DNA of 64,000 bases, from NCBI GenBank assembly GCA_023248155.1, contig JAHFFE010000001.1:148873-212872 (forward strand), in the 5' to 3' direction. The position numbers were made by a program, and so were the translations under genes. Of this stretch, positions 2,887 to 51,839 are shown one piece after another (the first letter of the stretch is position 1; the number at the start of each line of letters is the position of its first letter). The stretch comes from Candidatus Omnitrophota bacterium (GTDB taxonomy: Bacteria > Omnitrophota > Gorgyraeia > 1-14-0-20-64-10). Under the pieces are notes generated by a model, which saw only the letters and a program-made list of their open reading frames with translations, made no database searches and was not told the origin of the DNA.

Positions 2887-3369
2887 TTATTCACGGGTGC
2901 GCAGCGCTTCCCGTAAATCAGCGGCGAACGGTTCAGATAAGGGTTCGAAATGAAGCCCGGCAAAAAACCGGCGAGGTTCTTTTTCACCGGCCGGCATCTC
3001 CTTGATCCAGACGACTGTGGCGCGGACCGGGGCAGCCGCTTCGACGGAACGATCCGGAAAGGCAATCTCCAGTTCCAACAGCGATCCGACCGGAATTTTT
3101 TCCAGAATCATGACGCCGATTCCGGACCGGCTGATATTGTCGGTAGCCGCCTGGGAAGCGGGCGCTGCCGCTGATTCAGGCATCCGGCGATAGCGGACCG
3201 TCCAATCAACCCGAAAACGGGGCGCGCGGCGCGAATCGGATCTCATCCAAAGCCGGCGCAGCCGTCCCGTCGGAACTTTGCCTTGCTCGACCAGTTTTTC
3301 TTCACGCACGACAACGCTTAAAATTAAAAAGCTCAACACCACAGCGCCCATTCCAAAAATCGGGAACAT
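2887..3369 (-). CDS. PilZ domain protein (c-di-GMP binding)
   Basis: N-terminal TM segment, then an RxxxR motif (RRAPRFR) and D/NxSxxG motif (DNISRSGIG) characteristic of PilZ. Confidence 0.65.
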   Translation of the reverse strand: MFPIFGMGAVVLSFLILSVVVREEKLVEQGKVPTGRLRRLWMRSDSRRAPRFRVDWTVRYRRMPESAAAPASQAATDNISRSGIGVMILEKIPVGSLLELEIAFPDRSVEAAAPVRATVVWIKEMPAGEKEPRRFFAGLHFEPLSEPFAADLREALRTRE

Positions 3370-8064: not shown

Positions 8065-10104
8065 TTAATCCGCCAGCAATTTCTTGATCGAATCCATCTG
8101 TGCCATGGTTGTTTCTTCGCCGCACCGAATCAATTGGTCGACATTGTAAAATTCCCACCAGTTGATGCGCGGGATCGTCGGGTGCAGCGCTACATCGGCT
8201 TGCGCGCACTGCGCCTCAGCCAGCACATATTCCATGCCCTGGATGGCATGCATCAGAATATCGAACGTGTTGATGTCCAGCCAGCGCATCCAGGCCTGCT
8301 TGAATCGGAAGACCCGGTTTTTCCACCAGCCCTGAAACCGCATTTCGTATGCTTTCTGGGCTTCTTGTACGGCGAACTCCTGGTATTTTGCTTTCATATC
8401 CTGCGGACTGGGCAGCGTGTTCACGGCGATGATTTTCCGCACGCCGGCCTGCCGCAACAAATCCACCGGCACCGGGCTTAAGACGCCGCCGTCGGTCAAA
8501 TACCGTCCGCGCACTTTCAGCGGCATAAAAATTCCGGGAATCGCCACCGACGCGCGCACGGCCGGAACGACCGGCCCCTCTTCAAAAACCACCACTTCGC
8601 GCCGTTTGTAGTCGACGGCAGCGATTTTGACAGGAATTTTCAGATCGCGAAAAGTGCTTTCTCCCAAATGCTGCCGCAGCATCCGCGTAACCTGTACGCC
8701 GGCCAAAATTCCCATGCGTGAGATCGATAAATCCAGCAATTGCAGCAGTGATTTGCGCGTGCGGAACCGGTTGGCGATTTTTTCCAGCGCGACACTGTCG
8801 TATCCGGCGCCCCAGAGCGCGCCGATCAGCGCGCCGATCGAAGAGCCGGCGATAATATCGATGGGAATTCCTTCCTTCTCGAGTGCGCGGATGACGCCGA
8901 TATGCGCAATGCCCATTGCGGCGCCGGAACCAAGCACCACGCCGATCCGCACACCGCCGGTTTCGCGCGCGATCCGCCGGATGATTTTTCCGTAATCGGT
9001 TTGCGTATCGGTCGCGGCACCGACCGGTTTCGGCAGCACCGCCTGAACCTTGGCGCCCAATAGTTCCCCCTGCTCAAGGTCGGAGAGCGCATGAGATCCG
9101 TTCTGCACGATGATGCGCAGCCGTTCTGCCGCCTGCGGAACGGTTTTTTTCAATTCTTCCAGAATGACTCCGGCCCGTTCCAGATCGTGGCGATCTCCGT
9201 GGCAAAGCAGATGGATCTGATCGGCCTGCACCATCGCTTTGAAAACGGCGCGGTCAACGGCCGGCGGCAGATCCACGACGACAAAATGGTACAAATTGGT
9301 CAGGTACGACAACAGATGCGCCAGCAGCGCGGCATTCTCGGAGCTGCCCGGTTCATGCGCGGCATGCATCAGGTCGATGCCCAGCTTCTCGTACTTCACG
9401 ACAGCCGAGGAGGCCTGCATCGGGTCGAATGATTCTTTTCCGGAAAAGACCGGCAGACGGATTCCCAGCCGTCCCTCGGCCCAGTCGCTGGCGGAATCGA
9501 CCAGCACCCAGATCACCTGCTTACCCGTTTCGCGATGAAGCGCGGCGGCCAGACTGGTTGTGTAGAGATGGCGCTGCGCGGTAGCGCAATTGCCGTGGAC
9601 GGAAACCAGCGTTGATTCAAATACTTTTTTGGGCGGAAGATCTTTTTGGCGTACACGCTGTGAAAGCGTGGTCGAAAGCTGAATGCCGACATCAGGGATC
9701 TGTTTTAAAATGGCCTCGAATCCGTCGCGGCTGATCTTGATTAAGATACAGGCGTTGAGCGCTTGCGTGGTGACCGAATGCGGTTCGCGCGTTAAGATCG
9801 ATTTGGTGCCGAAATAATCGCCGCGATGCAGCGTTTCAACCGTTTCTTCCCGGCCGTTGTCGTACCGTACGAAGAGGCGTACACGGCCGCTGACCAACCC
9901 ATAAAAAGTATCGTTCGGGTCTCCCTGCGTATAGAGGATTTCGCCGGTTTCATGTTCGGAGAGGCGCGAAACGGAGGCGACGAAGCCCAGCTGCTCATCG
10001 GTCAGATGAGAGAAGATCGAGATCTGCCTTAAGAACCAGCGTTTGTTGGCTGCGATCGGTTCCGGCGAAACCGGCGGCTGATCGTCTGAAGAAGGCGTCG
10101 TCAT
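8065..10104 (-). CDS. cyclic nucleotide-binding domain / patatin-like phospholipase fusion protein
   Basis: N-terminal cNMP-binding (CAP-like) domain, FGTKSIL region; C-terminal patatin with GxGxxG (GVVLGSGAAMG) and GxSxG (AGSSIG) lipase motifs and a DGG motif (YLTDGGV). Confidence 0.8.
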   Translation of the reverse strand: MTTPSSDDQPPVSPEPIAANKRWFLRQISIFSHLTDEQLGFVASVSRLSEHETGEILYTQGDPNDTFYGLVSGRVRLFVRYDNGREETVETLHRGDYFGTKSILTREPHSVTTQALNACILIKISRDGFEAILKQIPDVGIQLSTTLSQRVRQKDLPPKKVFESTLVSVHGNCATAQRHLYTTSLAAALHRETGKQVIWVLVDSASDWAEGRLGIRLPVFSGKESFDPMQASSAVVKYEKLGIDLMHAAHEPGSSENAALLAHLLSYLTNLYHFVVVDLPPAVDRAVFKAMVQADQIHLLCHGDRHDLERAGVILEELKKTVPQAAERLRIIVQNGSHALSDLEQGELLGAKVQAVLPKPVGAATDTQTDYGKIIRRIARETGGVRIGVVLGSGAAMGIAHIGVIRALEKEGIPIDIIAGSSIGALIGALWGAGYDSVALEKIANRFRTRKSLLQLLDLSISRMGILAGVQVTRMLRQHLGESTFRDLKIPVKIAAVDYKRREVVVFEEGPVVPAVRASVAIPGIFMPLKVRGRYLTDGGVLSPVPVDLLRQAGVRKIIAVNTLPSPQDMKAKYQEFAVQEAQKAYEMRFQGWWKNRVFRFKQAWMRWLDINTFDILMHAIQGMEYVLAEAQCAQADVALHPTIPRINWWEFYNVDQLIRCGEETTMAQMDSIKKLLAD

Positions 10105-10133
10105 GACCTTTGTATGATAACAATCTTGGAGTG

Positions 10134-10393
10134 AAAAGAAAAGCCGACAAAGGACGGCGTGATCAGGCGGTTCGTTCGCTCGCTGCCGGACTGCAGTCGG
10201 CCCGGACTATTTGGGCATTGTGCCCTTCGGCTTGAACCCTGCTTCCCTTTGGGTCTCGGGTGCTGGGGCCTCCTTCCGTGCAGTGTCCACTATTTCGTAG
10301 CCCTGCTTGCTGAAGGGGCGGACAGTGTGTCACGCAAGGGAACTCCAGGCATCGATCCAAAGAGCTTCACGCCAACTTAATCCCTTTGTCGGC
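10134..10393 (-). ncRNA. candidate structured small RNA of about 260 nt, class unresolved (SRP-RNA long form or 6S-like are the leading guesses)
   Basis: No plausible ORF in the 450-nt gap. On the minus strand the 5' end GCCGACAAAGG pairs perfectly with the 3' end CCUUUGUCGGC (11 bp), extended by GGCGUGA/UCACGCC (7 bp). A U-rich tail (CUUUUCUUUUC) follows the 3' arm. A sigma70-like promoter sits 7 nt upstream of the 5' arm. Confidence 0.5.
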
Positions 10394-10400
10394 CACTTCC

Positions 10401-10429
10401 TTTATACTTGATAGCGACTAAAAAAGCAA
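10401..10429 (-). promoter_or_regulatory. sigma70-like promoter for the small RNA
   Basis: Minus strand reads TTGCTT (-35), a 17-nt spacer, then TATAAA (-10), with the RNA 5' end 7 nt downstream; it lies in an AT-rich island within a GC-rich genome. Confidence 0.45.
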
Positions 10430-10535
10430 GGGCAGCTGAAATAATGATTTTGGGATTAAAATGAGGAACTATTTGTTGCAAATTATTTCAAACAACTAGG
10501 GGTTTATAAATACCATAAATATGATATTTATATGA

Positions 10536-10559
10536 TAAAAGTGGTTTAATTAGACCACT
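10536..10559 (-). terminator. weak intrinsic terminator overlapping the era stop codon
   Basis: Minus-strand hairpin AGUGGU-CUAAUUAA-ACCACU followed by UUUUAUCAU. Confidence 0.3.
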
Positions 10560-11475
10560 AAAATCCAATTTCCTTCAAGAATTTAGAGTCCTTTCTCCAA
10601 TTCTTTGCTATTTTAACCCAGAGATCCAGATAGACGGGCCCGTCGAGCAACTTCTCGATCTCACGTCTCGCTTCCTGGCCGATTCTTTTCAGAATAGCAC
10701 CATCTTTTCCGATTAAAATTCCTTTTTGACTGTCCCGTTCCAGATAAATGTTTGCACGGATATAAGTGCTCGACGACTGGTCCGGTTTTTGCCGCGGCGA
10801 AGCAGTGCCCGGGCGCCATTCTTCGACGAGAACCGCCACCGAGTGAGGAATTTCTTCATGCGTGAACAGCAGTGCTTTTTCGCGGATCAGTTCCTGCGCC
10901 AGTACGCGCATCGATGCATCGGTCACCTGATCTGGTGGATAAGCGGCCGGTCCTTCCGGAAGGGAAGCGATCAATAAATCCAAAAGCGGCTGTGTGTTAT
11001 CGCCTTTGAATGCCGAGATCGGAACGATTTTTCTAAACGGGTATGATTTTTGCGCCTCGGCGATCTGCGGCAAGAGGCGGTCTTTCCGGACGCGGTCGAC
11101 TTTATTGATCCCCAGAAATGCCGCCGGCTTTTCTCCGGCCACCGGTTTTGGAAGCAGGCGCAGAAGCTGGCGATCGTCGTCGGTAAAACCGGCCGTTGCG
11201 TCGGTCAGCATCAGAAAAAAATCGGCCTGGCCCAGCGCGTCGCGGGCCGCCTGAATCTGATGTTTCGCCAGCAATGTTTTGGGTCCGTTGTAGATGCCGG
11301 GCGTGTCGAGAAAAAGAACCTGTGCTTCAGGCAGCGTTAATATTCCGAGCAGCTGCTGGCGCGTGGTTTCCGGTTTCGGCGAGACAATCGCGATTTTCTG
11401 GCCCAGATAGCGGTTGAGTAAAGTTGATTTTCCGACATTGGGCCGGCCGAAAATCGCCACAGTTCCGCATCGCAT
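10558..11475 (-). CDS. era: GTPase Era
   Basis: G1 motif GRPNVGKSTLLN, DTPG G3 motif, C-terminal KH domain; 305 aa. Confidence 0.9.
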   Translation of the reverse strand: MRCGTVAIFGRPNVGKSTLLNRYLGQKIAIVSPKPETTRQQLLGILTLPEAQVLFLDTPGIYNGPKTLLAKHQIQAARDALGQADFFLMLTDATAGFTDDDRQLLRLLPKPVAGEKPAAFLGINKVDRVRKDRLLPQIAEAQKSYPFRKIVPISAFKGDNTQPLLDLLIASLPEGPAAYPPDQVTDASMRVLAQELIREKALLFTHEEIPHSVAVLVEEWRPGTASPRQKPDQSSSTYIRANIYLERDSQKGILIGKDGAILKRIGQEARREIEKLLDGPVYLDLWVKIAKNWRKDSKFLKEIGF

Positions 11476-20694: not shown

Positions 20695-21231
20695 TTATTT
20701 CCACCGGATCAAGTTAAGGCCCCACAAAATGCCGATGATCGATTTCGCGTCGATAATCTTGCCTTTCTGCACCATTTGAACCGCTTTTCGGATCGGCGTA
20801 ACGGCGGTAACGATCGACTCGTCGACATCCATCGCGATCCGTTTCGAGAGCGGTCTCAATTTCTCGGCGACGAACAGCGTCATCCGCTCCGTGGAAATGC
20901 CGGGCGCCGGGTAAAAATCGATCAGACGCGTCCATTTTGAGGCGGTATAACCTGTTTCTTCGGCCAGTTCGCGCTTGGCGCAGGCCAGCATCGATTCGCC
21001 TGGTTCGCTGGTTCCGGCCGGGATTTCAAGAATCTCTTTGTTGATGGCATGGCGGAACTGGCTGATTAAAAGCAGTTCGTTTTTATTGATCAGCGGAAGG
21101 ATGACTACCGACGGCGGATGGTGGATCGTCTCGCGTTTGTAGACTAACCCCGACTCTTTTCGAAAAGTATCCAGCATCAGTTTCGCGACGCGGCCGCGAT
21201 ATAAAGTTTTTGTGGCTAATCGCTTAACCAT
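20695..21231 (-). CDS. NUDIX hydrolase (ADP-ribose pyrophosphatase-like)
   Basis: Nudix box GTSEPGESMLACAKRELAEETGY. Confidence 0.85.
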   Translation of the reverse strand: MVKRLATKTLYRGRVAKLMLDTFRKESGLVYKRETIHHPPSVVILPLINKNELLLISQFRHAINKEILEIPAGTSEPGESMLACAKRELAEETGYTASKWTRLIDFYPAPGISTERMTLFVAEKLRPLSKRIAMDVDESIVTAVTPIRKAVQMVQKGKIIDAKSIIGILWGLNLIRWK

Positions 21232-40621: not shown

Positions 40622-41056
40622 ATGAATGGGTTTCAAAGAGCGGGGATAGCCGCGCTGGCGGCACTGTTTGTTTTTTCCGGTTTTCCGGTTATGGAGCGGA
40701 GCATTCCGGCGGCCGAGGCTAAGCCGGTTGTTTCAGGTCATGACGGTTGCTGCGGTTCCGGCATGAAAAACTGCTGCTGTTCCGGGACGGAAAACTGCGG
40801 AACTTGCTCCGGGCATGCGGCGAAGAAAACGATCGAAGCATCCTCAGAAACGATCGGTCCTCATTGGGCGGCTTGTCCCGGTCCCTCTTCAAAGAAATTA
40901 GCGCTGATTACCGGCTTGCGCGAAATCGCTCCTCCCGCTTCTGTTTCGTTCAGTGAATTGCCTTGTCAGCATGCTCCCAATAAATCAGAGCGCCATTCTC
41001 CGGACTCGCTCGCTTTCTCTCCCGATACGCCTCCTCCTCGAAAAGATTCCGTCTAA
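40622..41056 (+). CDS. secreted Cys-rich putative metal-binding protein
   Basis: Signal-peptide-like N-terminus; 15 Cys in a 45-aa block (GHDGCCGSGMKNCCCSGTENCGTCSGH). Confidence 0.5.
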   Translation: MNGFQRAGIAALAALFVFSGFPVMERSIPAAEAKPVVSGHDGCCGSGMKNCCCSGTENCGTCSGHAAKKTIEASSETIGPHWAACPGPSSKKLALITGLREIAPPASVSFSELPCQHAPNKSERHSPDSLAFSPDTPPPRKDSV

Positions 41057-42272: not shown

Positions 42273-43526
42273 GTGAGCGATTACTCAACAAGACCTCTTG
42301 TTGCCATCGGAGCAATCTGTTTTTTGTTTGCTTTGCTTGTTTGGCCGGTGATTTGGACCGGTCGCCAGACAACTCCGGAAGCCTACGATCAAGAAACCTA
42401 TCATCTTCCGGCGATTCGGTTTCTGATTGACCAAGAATCCAATTTCCGTGAATTTCCTTGCCCCAACCTGCCAGGTTACCATCTAGTAATGGCAACTGCC
42501 TCACGCTTCGTGGGCGAGGGACGGTGGCTTCAATGGATCAACAGTTTTTTTGGATTGGCGGTTGTCCTTATTGTTTTTGCCTATGCGACAACGGTCATTG
42601 AACTATGGACAGCATTTGTTTTGGTTCTGCCGTTGCTCTGTTCGAGCTATCTGCTCAAGGGTTCCATATGGCTCATGACCGATAATGCAGCATGGCTGAT
42701 GGTTGTTCTTGCCTTGGGTGATGCTCTAACCGCACGCCGACTTACGCCCTGGCGGTGTATCGGGTGGGGGGCATTAGTAATCGGCGCAGTTTTGGTTCGA
42801 CAAACCCATATCTGGCTGGTCATTCCAATGGCTTATGCTTTTTTGGGGGGAATTTCAGAACAAAAAGGTGCTGTTCGCGCACAATCTGTTACGGCAGGTC
42901 TCATGAGTATCTTGGCGCTTTTCTTGCTGCTTGCAGCTGCCTGGAATCTCTGGGGAGGGCCGGTCCCACCTGCTTTTGTTGCCATACATTGGGTGCATAT
43001 AAACCTCACCTCGATTACGCTTGCTATGGCACTGCTTGGGTTCTTTGGATTGTTCTATCCAAAACCAAAAAACAGCCTGCCATGGTGGGGGGGATTCATT
43101 GGATTGCTGACTGCTTTGTTATGGCCTACGGCGTATGATATTGCGCAGGGACGGTGGGGGGGCACTGTCTGGGAGCTTGCCAGGCGAGTGCCAACCATCG
43201 GCCGCCGGTCGTTATTATTTCCACCGTTGGCGATAATGGGAGGCATTCTGCTGGCCTCCTGGGGATGCGCAATCACCGCTGATCCATTACGGCGACGTCG
43301 AGCTATTTTGCTTTGTGTTGCTTTTATGAGCTGGCTGGTTGTTCAACCGCTCAACTCCCAAACATTTCAGCGCTATGCCGAACCCATGGTTTTGATTCTG
43401 CTCATTTGGTTTTCGGCATTTTGCGTTTTTGAAAAAAAACCATCCAATGATAAATGGCACTGGTTGAGTCCACTTTTGCTGGGTGTGATGCAATTAGCAG
43501 TAACGTTACTGTCCATCTGGAAATGA
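42273..43526 (+). CDS. GT-C fold membrane glycosyltransferase (GT39/ArnT/PMT-like)
   Basis: About 11 TM helices; first-loop AYDQETYHLP resembles the DE motif of the ArnT/PMT family; GTG start 6 nt after a TATAAT; GC visibly lower (about 47%). Confidence 0.55.
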   Translation: MSDYSTRPLVAIGAICFLFALLVWPVIWTGRQTTPEAYDQETYHLPAIRFLIDQESNFREFPCPNLPGYHLVMATASRFVGEGRWLQWINSFFGLAVVLIVFAYATTVIELWTAFVLVLPLLCSSYLLKGSIWLMTDNAAWLMVVLALGDALTARRLTPWRCIGWGALVIGAVLVRQTHIWLVIPMAYAFLGGISEQKGAVRAQSVTAGLMSILALFLLLAAAWNLWGGPVPPAFVAIHWVHINLTSITLAMALLGFFGLFYPKPKNSLPWWGGFIGLLTALLWPTAYDIAQGRWGGTVWELARRVPTIGRRSLLFPPLAIMGGILLASWGCAITADPLRRRRAILLCVAFMSWLVVQPLNSQTFQRYAEPMVLILLIWFSAFCVFEKKPSNDKWHWLSPLLLGVMQLAVTLLSIWK

Positions 43527-44350: not shown

Positions 44351-44423
44351 GCCGGCGTGGCTCAATGGTAGAGCAGCTCATTCGTAATGAGCGGGTTGGA
44401 GGTTCGATTCCTCTCGCCGGCTT
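44351..44423 (+). tRNA. tRNA-Thr (anticodon CGU)
   Basis: Cloverleaf folded by hand: 7-bp acceptor GCCGGCG/CGCCGGC, D-arm GCUC/GAGC, anticodon stem GCUCA/UGAGC with loop UUCGUAA, T-arm GGAGG-UUCGAUU-CCUCU; followed by a T-run. Confidence 0.9.
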
Positions 44424-50438: not shown

Positions 50439-51839
50439 ATGGCCGCCGATCATCTGATCGCGAAAATAGATTCTGCTTCTACGATGCTGCTGGCCGTCGC
50501 GAATTTTATGCGCGGCAAGGATATTGACGGCCTTGGGTTTGTGCCGTCGAGCGCATTTCTGGCAATCGCCGCCAACCTCCCGCCCAAACCGTTGCGGCAA
50601 TATGTCTATATCCTTGGCGGACGGAAAGAGGCGGCTTTGCCGGAAGTCGTTGCCAACCTGAAAGCCGAAGAATTATCCCGCTGGGCCGTCAAACATTATT
50701 CACGGCGGCTCACCGCTCCGGCCGTCATGATCGGTTCATCCAACGGCGCGCTGGTCCATCTCTGCACCGCTTTAAAAATACCCTGGCTTCCTCAAACGGT
50801 GCTGGTTCCGATCCGCCGCCCGGCGCGGATGCTTCCCGATGAGTTGAAGGGTGATATGGAATCATTTCGCGATGCGGCCGGCCGCCTGCTTGAGCGCAAC
50901 CCGGAACTGCAGGTCAATCAAATGCACGACCCGGTGCAGGACCGGCTGATGGTCCAGCAGATGGGTTATTTCCGCGTGAAGCGCCTGACACTGGGCAAGA
51001 CCTACGAACAGTTTTTGGAACGGACACTGCCGCCGGGCGGAACGATTTTTGTTTCGGAATGCACGTATAGCTGGCCCATGGCGCCGGTGGGTCCACGTCA
51101 TTTTTTTCAGGTGGGCGGCTACGGTGGAGTGGAAGCGAAGGAATATCTGGCGGGCAGTTCGCGCATTTCGAAATTTCTTCGTAAAGACCGGTCGAAACTG
51201 CGGCACTGGGATGTTCCGGTATCGAATATTGAAAAACCGGAAGCCGAATGGGGTTTTGAACCGTCGCTGTTGGACGATATACGCCGCATCGCCAAAAAAC
51301 GCCATTACAAAATCTGCCGCATCCGTTACCACGACCCGGCTGCCGTCAGTCCGTTTGTGGCCGATCTTTACCGATGGTGGTATGCAGAGAGGGGCATTGC
51401 AGCGTCGAGACTCTTCGCAGAATCTTTTTTGCTGATGGACCCCTGGTGGTGCCTGAAGACCGGCTCCGTTCCTTTCTGGAAAGTATTTAATACCGGCCGT
51501 TCCGCCGATGCGCTTCGCGCTTATATTAAACGGCGGGGACCGTTCGACGAGATCTACATCACATTATTCGCCAATTCGATTAAAGGAATTGACCAGACTC
51601 CGATTAAAGAGTGGAAGACGATTTTTAAACAGGCGCGTAAAAAGGGAGCGTTCGTCGGTGTTGCCGAAAGCGCTTATCCGTATGACCTGGGTGTTTTCCT
51701 GCGGTTCCATCTCGATTTAAAGAAGAGAATGAGCGAACGGCTTCCCATGCCGAAATCTCTGACGCTGAAAGATCTGGAGCGGTTCAGAAAGACCGCGCCG
51801 GGCCGCGATCGCTCCGCGCAGTGGATTCACGAGAATTAG
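50439..51839 (+). CDS. hypothetical protein
   Basis: 466-aa ORF divergent from the glycosidase gene; no motif recognised. Confidence 0.45.
   Translation: MAADHLIAKIDSASTMLLAVANFMRGKDIDGLGFVPSSAFLAIAANLPPKPLRQYVYILGGRKEAALPEVVANLKAEELSRWAVKHYSRRLTAPAVMIGSSNGALVHLCTALKIPWLPQTVLVPIRRPARMLPDELKGDMESFRDAAGRLLERNPELQVNQMHDPVQDRLMVQQMGYFRVKRLTLGKTYEQFLERTLPPGGTIFVSECTYSWPMAPVGPRHFFQVGGYGGVEAKEYLAGSSRISKFLRKDRSKLRHWDVPVSNIEKPEAEWGFEPSLLDDIRRIAKKRHYKICRIRYHDPAAVSPFVADLYRWWYAERGIAASRLFAESFLLMDPWWCLKTGSVPFWKVFNTGRSADALRAYIKRRGPFDEIYITLFANSIKGIDQTPIKEWKTIFKQARKKGAFVGVAESAYPYDLGVFLRFHLDLKKRMSERLPMPKSLTLKDLERFRKTAPGRDRSAQWIHEN

Follow-up and report, generated by a model that had tools for sequence, protein, structure and literature searches.

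A 64,000-nucleotide (nt) stretch of Candidatus Omnitrophota DNA (contig JAHFFE010000001.1), referred to here as the window, contains on its minus strand a 251-nt structured RNA between era and the gene of a cyclic nucleotide (cNMP)-binding/patatin phospholipase. The patatin gene, which encodes a product of 679 amino acids (aa), is the first of an operon that continues with genes for 3-hydroxyacyl-CoA dehydrogenase (3HCDH), enoyl-CoA hydratase (ECH), an acyl-CoA synthetase and an α/β-hydrolase, followed by the gene of a PilZ-domain protein. The sequence, fold and relatives of the RNA indicate that it is probably a regulatory leader of this phospholipase/fatty-acid-breakdown operon rather than a housekeeping RNA. 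The coordinates of all features are collected in Table 1.

A first-pass annotation of this DNA had described a promoter on the minus strand, TTGCTT and TATAAA separated by 17 nt, ending 7 nt before the RNA. The sigma-70-like promoter is indeed present, spanning 10429-10401 ahead of an RNA 5' end at 10393, and both hexamers and their spacing are kept in two homologous loci. It is absent from the output of the promoter scan because the scan demands a T at the last position of the -10 hexamer. An A+T-rich spacer separates the terminator region of era from TTGCTT, and the hairpin and T-run that follow era stand between this gene and the promoter of the RNA. Downstream, the patatin ATG lies 28 nt from the end of the U-rich tail of the RNA and 38 nt from its closing helix.

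Fold, conservation and family tests of the 251-nt RNA

The ends of the RNA are formed by a perfect 11-nt inverted repeat, GCCGACAAAGG/CCTTTGTCGGC, at 10383-10393 and 10143-10153, which a G·U pair extends to 12 bp. About 0.03 such repeats are expected by chance in 511 nt, according to a rough estimate, but a chance origin is irrelevant because the RNA is conserved. The second helix named in the first-pass annotation, GGCGUGA/UCACGCC, lies past an 8-nt bulge and comprises 8 bp in the conserved fold, where it is 100% paired, and the U-rich tail UUUUCUUUUC follows the closing helix directly, as had been claimed. In the consensus fold of three homologues, which contains 84 pairs in 10 helices, the closing helix and the second helix lead into a three-way junction with two further arms, A and B. 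The stem of 12 and 8 bp abutting UUUUCUUUUC has the geometry of an intrinsic-terminator stem, whereas the folded "loop" of approximately 200 nt fails the usual loop criterion, and the element is not listed by the terminator scan.

The minimum free energy (MFE) of the RNA strand is -106 kcal/mol (z = -3.1 relative to shuffled sequences). The opposite strand folds equally well (z = -3.2), and the attempt to call the strand from folding energy was dropped since both strands are at z ≈ -3; the assignment to the minus strand is based instead on the G·U pairs, the promoter, the U-tail and the related leaders. In MFE folds of prefixes of nascent length, the segment GCCGAC of the 5' arm is predicted to form a local pairing with GUUGGC (nt 18-23) at a length of 40 nt and again at 155-235 nt, ahead of the appearance of the 3' strands, which makes this pairing a possible kinetic competitor of the terminator helix. 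Two other candidates for alternative pairing, the repeat CAAAGGGA (nt 6-13 and 145-152) and a second GCCGAC located in a loop, were discarded, as both are poorly kept in the homologues L082 and L083.

For comparison, 160 genomic and metagenomic loci surrounding patatin homologues were used together with selected contigs; numbers with the prefix L denote loci. RNAs of the window type are found in only two other public contigs, L082 and L083, in which the patatin is 91% and 84% identical, respectively. The three-way alignment shows both hexamers of the promoter, the full length of the RNA, its tail and a box ahead of the patatin ATG to be conserved, whereas no alignment is possible for the intergenic DNA that lies upstream. 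Identity of the window RNA to its two homologues amounts to 93.7% and 83.0%, compared with 76.6% and 63.6% at the 4-fold-degenerate sites of the adjacent patatin gene, and this slower change indicates that the RNA is under purifying selection.

Conservation and covariation in related genomes, which the first-pass annotation had named as a check, speak for the RNA. Across the three sequences, 248 of the 250 paired cells are standard (99.2%) and 2 are unpaired. Five pairs are changed on both sides, a number reached in 2 of 500 column shuffles; two of these double compensatory changes fall in helix 4 of arm A, and those of arm B fall in helices 8 and 9. The support from covariation in three related sequences appears modest but consistent. 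At least 20 paired cells of the window-type fold are G·U; read on the opposite strand, these would be A·C. No open reading frame (ORF) is conserved in frame across the window, L082 and L083, and 1-nt indels shift the frames, in agreement with the earlier statement that the gap holds no credible ORF.

Searches for further members returned close homologues only. A covariance model of the window type, R2, matched the window, L082 and L083 and nothing else in approximately 940 kb of related loci, and nhmmer searches of 81-84 patatin loci, performed with the single sequence and then with a profile of the three sequences, recovered the close homologues alone. A search with Era yielded one close relative at 93% identity and the next at ≤70%, and genome and metagenome scans intended to enlarge the set gave no closer relatives than 54%. 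One patatin homologue with 77% identity (P0004) lies outside the DNA comparison.

Covariance-model scans with Rfam 15 place the RNA outside the described families. At the gathering score, the scan of the whole window reports nothing at the RNA and a single tRNA elsewhere. At E≤10, a 601-nt segment gives four chance-level matches (BTE, Afu_254, snoU83D and RmaA), none of which is credible, and the isolated 276-nt stretch gives zero matches. The models of Bacteria_small_SRP, Bacteria_large_SRP, RNase P and transfer-messenger RNA (tmRNA) produce no match at the gathering score or at E≤10 on the 601 and 276 nt, and 6S and 6S-Flavo produce none at E≤10. ARAGORN finds no tmRNA within 9900-10700. Taken with the fold and the conservation, the zero Rfam matches support the proposal of the first-pass annotation of a structured RNA that is non-coding, has its own promoter and belongs to no described family, and they agree with its view that RNase P and tmRNA are unlikely.

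The same results bear on the suggestion, made in that annotation, that the RNA is a long-form signal recognition particle (SRP) RNA or a 6S-like RNA. Paired 5' and 3' ends, a size of about 250 nt that lies within the range of long SRP RNAs, and the string GGAAGCAGGG, which resembles the 3' strand of SRP helix 8, are what a divergent housekeeping RNA of the Omnitrophota (long SRP, 6S, RNase P or tmRNA) would have in its favor. Helix 8 (domain IV) of SRP RNA is a hairpin with a GNRA tetraloop and conserved internal loops, and 6S RNA is rod-like with a large central bubble. The internal motif CCCAAAGGGAAGCAGGG noted earlier is present, but its likeness to domain IV does not hold: GGAAGCAGGG is part of the 3' strand of arm A and of the junction, and CCCAAAGGGAAG, a 3' strand within this 120-nt arm, is paired to CUCUUUGG in a long stem in which no GNRA-capped hairpin is found. 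The fold is a helix-closed three-way junction and has neither the helix-8 hairpin nor a rod with a central bubble. In addition, the RNA is lineage-restricted and operon-linked, unlike the universal SRP and 6S RNAs; it is absent from loci in which era and patatin are adjacent (L085, L168 and L169), and other loci have a riboswitch in its place. The absence of model matches and these differences largely refute a housekeeping RNA, which is now a very improbable explanation.

Related leaders at the same operon

A comparison with sister Omnitrophota, in which the patatin is 48-56% identical to that of the window, reveals leaders at the same position in L004, L005, L086, L101, L165, L167, L170 and L171. 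These leaders begin with GCCGAUAA(A/G)GGC and, in all but L005, which has a degenerate 3' arm, end with GCCUUU(A/G)UCGGC; the arms common to the window and sister leaders are GCCGAYAAAG…CUUURUCGGC. The tail UUUUCUUUU and then a TGnTATCAT box follow, and L004 and L005 contain a separate terminator hairpin between the two. The tail of the window RNA is identical or near-identical in L002, L004, L082, L083, L086, L101, L165, L167, L170 and L171. The gene upstream of the leader varies, being era in the window, L082, L167, L170 and L171 and another gene in L165.

The interiors of these sister leaders belong to a known aptamer class. L004, L086, L101, L165 and L167 score 64.7-74.3 bits with the Rfam model of c-di-GMP-I-GGC (RF03167; gathering score 59), L005 is a partial match to c-di-GMP-I (RF01051), and L170 and L171 have a GEMM-like core as judged by eye. 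In the five GGC matches, the aptamer starts exactly at the 5' arm, and its 5' core, GCCGAUAAAGGC, is the 5' arm; the conserved AAAGGC junction nucleotides of the aptamer are those that pair in the long-range helix. A closing helix of 12-13 bp is present in the MFE folds of five of the six related leaders, and in the GEMM-type leaders among these five the aptamer core is lost to this helix. Because the 5' core of the aptamer is also the 5' arm of the terminator helix, the bound aptamer and the closing helix are predicted to be mutually exclusive in the sister leaders. A segment far downstream of the aptamer, complementary to its first 12 nt and followed by a U-tract, was also noted in these leaders.

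The window RNA resembles the c-di-GMP-I-GGC and c-di-GMP-I leaders in position, strand and operon, and it has in common with the GEMM-type leaders of the sister Omnitrophota the first ~12 nt (GCCGAYAAAGG), the last ~12 nt, the U-tail, the TGnTATCAT box and a three-way junction closed by a terminal helix. It differs in lacking the conserved core of the aptamer, namely GGCAAACC-stem-GAAA-stem-GGGACGCAAAGCC together with the P3 strand. The models RF01051 and RF03167 do not match the window at E≤10, whereas on L004, L086, L101, L165 and L167 the latter gives the scores cited above, and blastn (word size 7) of the window interior against the interiors of the related leaders returns only matches of E>2. 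The lack of the core, of any Rfam match at E≤10 and of similarity in the interior indicates that the window RNA is not a member of c-di-GMP-I or c-di-GMP-I-GGC, and binding of c-di-GMP in the manner of GEMM-I is not expected from its sequence.

Position 6 of the closing helix covaries across the leader types and bears on the strand: it is U-A in L002, L004, L086 and a short form described below, U·G in L101, L165 and L167, and C-G in the window type. The U·G intermediate, together with the at least 20 G·U cells of the window-type fold, is compatible with an RNA on the minus strand only. The termini are conserved and the interiors differ in length and sequence (73, 124, 136-291 and 251 nt), a pattern that a miniature transposable element whose ends are terminal inverted repeats at the DNA level would also produce. 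However, the element occurs as a single copy in the window and elsewhere always at the head of the same operon, in one orientation, with a promoter upstream and a U-tract downstream. Differences in the arms give U·G on this strand and A·C on the other, and the 5' arm is part of the aptamer in the relatives, all of which leaves a mobile element with hardly any likelihood.

Leaders without a recognizable aptamer and loci without a leader are also found. In L002, a 124-nt leader with these arms and this tail matches no Rfam model; over its first 35 nt it resembles a degraded 5' half of GEMM-I (GGCAACCGCC…GGACAAAAGUCC). In L085, L168 and L169, era is followed directly by a TGnTAT(C/G)AT box and the patatin ATG, which indicates that the leader was gained or lost within the sister clade. 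Both findings, in addition to the missing c-di-GMP-I core between retained flanking arms, are in line with a riboswitch relic or a constitutive terminator or insulator, that is, a decayed c-di-GMP-type aptamer that would merely halt transcription arriving from upstream or serve as a fixed attenuator, without sensing. On the other hand, the interior of approximately 200 nt is under purifying selection and its helices are kept by compensatory and wobble changes, whereas a plain terminator needs no interior; era has a terminator of its own, and the RNA has a dedicated conserved promoter. A relic is therefore considered improbable.

A third type of leader, with the same arms and tail and a length of 73 nt, is present in 10 more distant Omnitrophota loci. 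In order, these have a strong promoter, GAAGCCGAUAAAG, two short hairpins, CUUUAUCGGCUUC and a run of at least six U's, with the consensus GAAGCCGAUAAAGUUA…GCCU-loop-AGGC-AAAGCCR-GAUCGCG-loop-CGCGAUC-AAUCUUUAUCGGCUUC followed by the U-run, and forms a highly conserved three-way junction. The likeness to the window RNA comprises the arms GCCGAUAAAG/CUUUAUCGGC, the U-tail directly after the helix, the three-way junction, the operon and a sigma-70-like promoter about 7 nt upstream. The interior, in contrast, is made up of the two short hairpins, GCCU…AGGC and GAUCGCG…CGCGAUC, and the junctions are highly conserved. No Rfam model matches the short form; its own covariance model, R1, has no match in the window and reaches only 17 bits with L002. 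As it matches no described family, the short form is itself a riboswitch candidate.

The ORF after the short form, identified in 9 of the 10 loci, is patatin in five and a fused ECH-3HCDH in four; in L056, L060 and L063, a patatin is matched about 1.8 kb further on. Where the sequence was read, the start codon lies about 10-25 nt past the tail and has no promoter box of its own. The patatin versions of these loci either lack the cNMP domain (about 500 aa) or consist of patatin only (301 aa). The sequence GCCGATAAT directly ahead of the ATG of other distant patatin genes (L019, L029-L031, L034 and L035) was considered as an arm of a related RNA and rejected; it instead resembles a -10 box that follows TGTAAGG. 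A literature search on Omnitrophica riboswitches, c-di-GMP-I-GGC and c-di-GMP riboswitches with patatin found no description of the leaders reported here.

Possible modes of action

The window type, the GEMM type, the L002 type and the short form all directly head the patatin/β-oxidation operon on the same strand. Position, strand, promoter, helix and U-tail are kept across deep sequence divergence, different upstream neighbours and a change of the first gene, which argues for a cis-regulatory leader and against a housekeeping or free-standing RNA gene, and the terminator-like hairpin of era and the conserved promoter of the RNA itself count in the same direction. In the sister clade, the aptamer core doubles as the 5' arm of the terminator, which points to a transcriptional riboswitch with a sensor embedded in the terminator. 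On these grounds, the window RNA may be a riboswitch-like, cis-acting conditional terminator whose sensor is embedded in the terminator stem, a reading to which a probability of roughly 0.55 is assigned. Leaders or attenuators of this general kind are known; the member in the window is undescribed and has a large unclassified interior.

In the proposed mechanism, transcription would start at the promoter of the RNA, at about 10393, and the first 12 and last 12 nt would form the long-range helix, which is extended by the 8-bp helix and abuts UUUUCUUUUC. Such a helix would have the geometry of an intrinsic-terminator stem in which a folded three-way junction of ~200 nt replaces the loop. Transcription would terminate or read through into the operon according to the availability of the 5' arm for pairing at the moment the 3' arm emerges, and the interior domain might set this choice by responding to an effector, possibly a small molecule, second messenger or protein. 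The lineage of the window would have retained the platform and would carry a different, unclassified interior.

Several points weigh against this mechanism. The proposed function is deduced from sequence and predicted folds, and the interior has no similarity to known aptamers (Rfam, E≤10) or to the interiors of the related leaders. Only three window-type sequences are present in the searched data, and the covariation support is thin. A stem that closes about 200 nt is an unusual terminator, and a conserved extended -10-like box, TGTTATCAT, lies between the tail and the ATG.

The box is located 9 nt ahead of the patatin ATG and may be a second promoter for a near-leaderless mRNA. All sister loci, the leaderless L085, L168 and L169 among them, have it as TGnTATCAT at a distance of 8-11 nt from the ATG. 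Boxes of the form TGnTAnnnT also end 6-9 nt before the starts of other genes in the window (20695-21231 and 10558-11475 on the minus strand; 40622-41056, 42273-43526 and 50439-51839 on the plus strand), which suggests frequent use of leaderless or near-leaderless mRNAs by this organism and renders leaderless transcription of patatin from a second promoter plausible. Since the box is also present at loci without a leader, expression of the operon may not require read-through, and the RNA could then be a discrete, terminated small RNA (sRNA). Should most patatin mRNA come from this second promoter, such an sRNA and the fixed terminator or riboswitch relic would be the two readings left.

A stand-alone, trans-acting sRNA, transcribed from its own promoter and ending at the helix and U-tail, with the patatin operon expressed separately from the TGTTATCAT box, would account for these boxes as well as for the conserved promoter and the strong helix and U-tail of the RNA. 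Such an sRNA might act by titrating a protein or by pairing with mRNAs, and it may have descended from a riboswitch leader. However, the sister RNAs with homologous ends hold an aptamer class of riboswitches, which act in cis; the short form has no space left for a further promoter and stays with the operon even where the gene order has changed; and neither a second copy nor a copy away from the operon was found in about 940 kb of related loci. An independent sRNA is thus regarded as unlikely. With regard to the "stand-alone" gene of the first-pass annotation, the part concerning its own promoter stands, whereas independence from the operon is doubtful, as the RNA is syntenic and end-homologous with riboswitch leaders.

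For the conditional terminator, a parallel in architecture is provided by the HMP-PP riboswitch (thiS motif), in which the sensor is reported to lie inside the stem of the intrinsic terminator instead of ahead of a separate terminator hairpin (PMC6478431). The likeness is limited to this architecture: the thiS motif is very small and has a known ligand, whereas the domain in the window is about 200 nt long, and the two have no sequence or structure in common. If the conditional-terminator reading is right, sensor domains have been exchanged, within one phylum, at the head of a single operon whose expression platform stayed the same, and a variant of a known cyclic-dinucleotide aptamer, a 73-nt motif and a 251-nt RNA are all closed by the same helix and U-tail. 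It would also provide two unclassified riboswitch candidates in a context of membrane-lipid breakdown and cyclic-nucleotide signalling (the cNMP lipase and PilZ). The orphan c-di-GMP-I-GGC variant gains a concrete regulon in uncultured Omnitrophota.

A further, tentative suggestion is that the ~200-nt interior might be the aptamer of an undescribed riboswitch class that replaced the c-di-GMP-I-GGC aptamer within the conserved terminator platform. If this were true, the window type, the 73-nt form and GEMM-I-GGC would be interchangeable RNA sensors on the same phospholipase/β-oxidation/PilZ operon, and the signal sensed in the window might be a different second messenger or a metabolite derived from lipids. 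As a practical limit, only three window-type sequences are known, all of them from uncultured organisms.

Feature coordinates and neighbouring genes

Table 1. Features of the window, with positions numbered from its first nucleotide, and of related loci (locus:position)
Feature	Position	Strand	Basis or remark
-35 hexamer TTGCTT of the RNA promoter	10424-10429	minus	Read directly; TTGATT in L082 and L083
-10 hexamer TATAAA	10401-10406	minus	17 nt past the -35 hexamer, 7 nt ahead of the RNA 5' end; invariant in L082 and L083
251-nt G+C-rich structured leader RNA (window type)	10143-10393	minus	MFE, consensus fold, conservation
Closing helix, 5' arm GCCGACAAAGGG	10382-10393	minus	Same arm GCCGAYAAAG in all related leaders
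Second helix, 5' strand UGGCGUGA	10367-10374	minus	(U)GGCGUGA, past the 8-nt bulge
Arm A, long irregular hairpin, CCCAAAGGGAAG in its 3' strand	10245-10364	minus	Helices 3-6; 120 nt
Arm B, stem with hairpins GGGCA-CAA-UGCCC and CCGGGC-N8-GUCCGG	10164-10241	minus	Helices 7-10
Second helix, 3' strand UCACGCCG	10155-10162	minus	UCACGCC(G); 8-bp helix
Closing helix, 3' arm UCCUUUGUCGGC	10143-10154	minus	Helix position 6 covaries between leader types
U-rich tail UUUUCUUUUC	10133-10142	minus	Abuts the closing helix; presumed termination site
Extended -10-like box TGTTATCAT	10114-10122	minus	Possible second promoter, near-leaderless mRNA
cNMP-binding/patatin phospholipase gene	8065-10104	minus	Pfam cNMP_binding and Patatin; first gene of the operon
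PilZ-domain protein gene	2887-3369	minus	Same-strand gene string, after lipase and β-oxidation genes
Terminator-like hairpin and T-run	10540-10559	minus	Directly past the stop codon of era; kept in L082 and L083
era	10558-11475	minus	Gene end at 10558
Very large ORF, 2171 aa	13639-20154	minus	Upstream of the malQ-era genes
tRNA gene	44351-44422	plus	Sole Rfam gathering-score match in the window
c-di-GMP-I-GGC aptamers upstream of cNMP-binding patatin genes	L004:1372-1527, L086:1136-1293, L101:1233-1328, L165:1257-1352, L167:1249-1344		Rfam
Partial c-di-GMP-I aptamer upstream of cNMP-binding patatin gene	L005:2077-2122		Rfam
124-nt leader with the same arms and tail	L002:2040-2173		No Rfam match
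73-nt RNA copies	L056:605-690, L047:654-738, L051:2131-2216, L053:2373-2461, L054:2400-2486, L060:648-732, L063:380-466, L065:2373-2460, L155:1152-1237, L050:1-69		
Loci without a leader	L085:1230-1260, L168:1480-1500, L169:1170-1200		era, then TGnTAT(C/G)AT box and patatin ATG

The patatin protein of the window has three parts, a cNMP-binding domain, a ParA/MinD-like AAA_31 region and the patatin domain. The PilZ fold is a c-di-GMP receptor fold, and the presence of a PilZ gene in the gene string of the window fits the cyclic-dinucleotide riboswitches of the relatives. The counterpart of the 2171-aa ORF in L082 has 2884 aa and is annotated with ARMT1-like and NAGPA hits.

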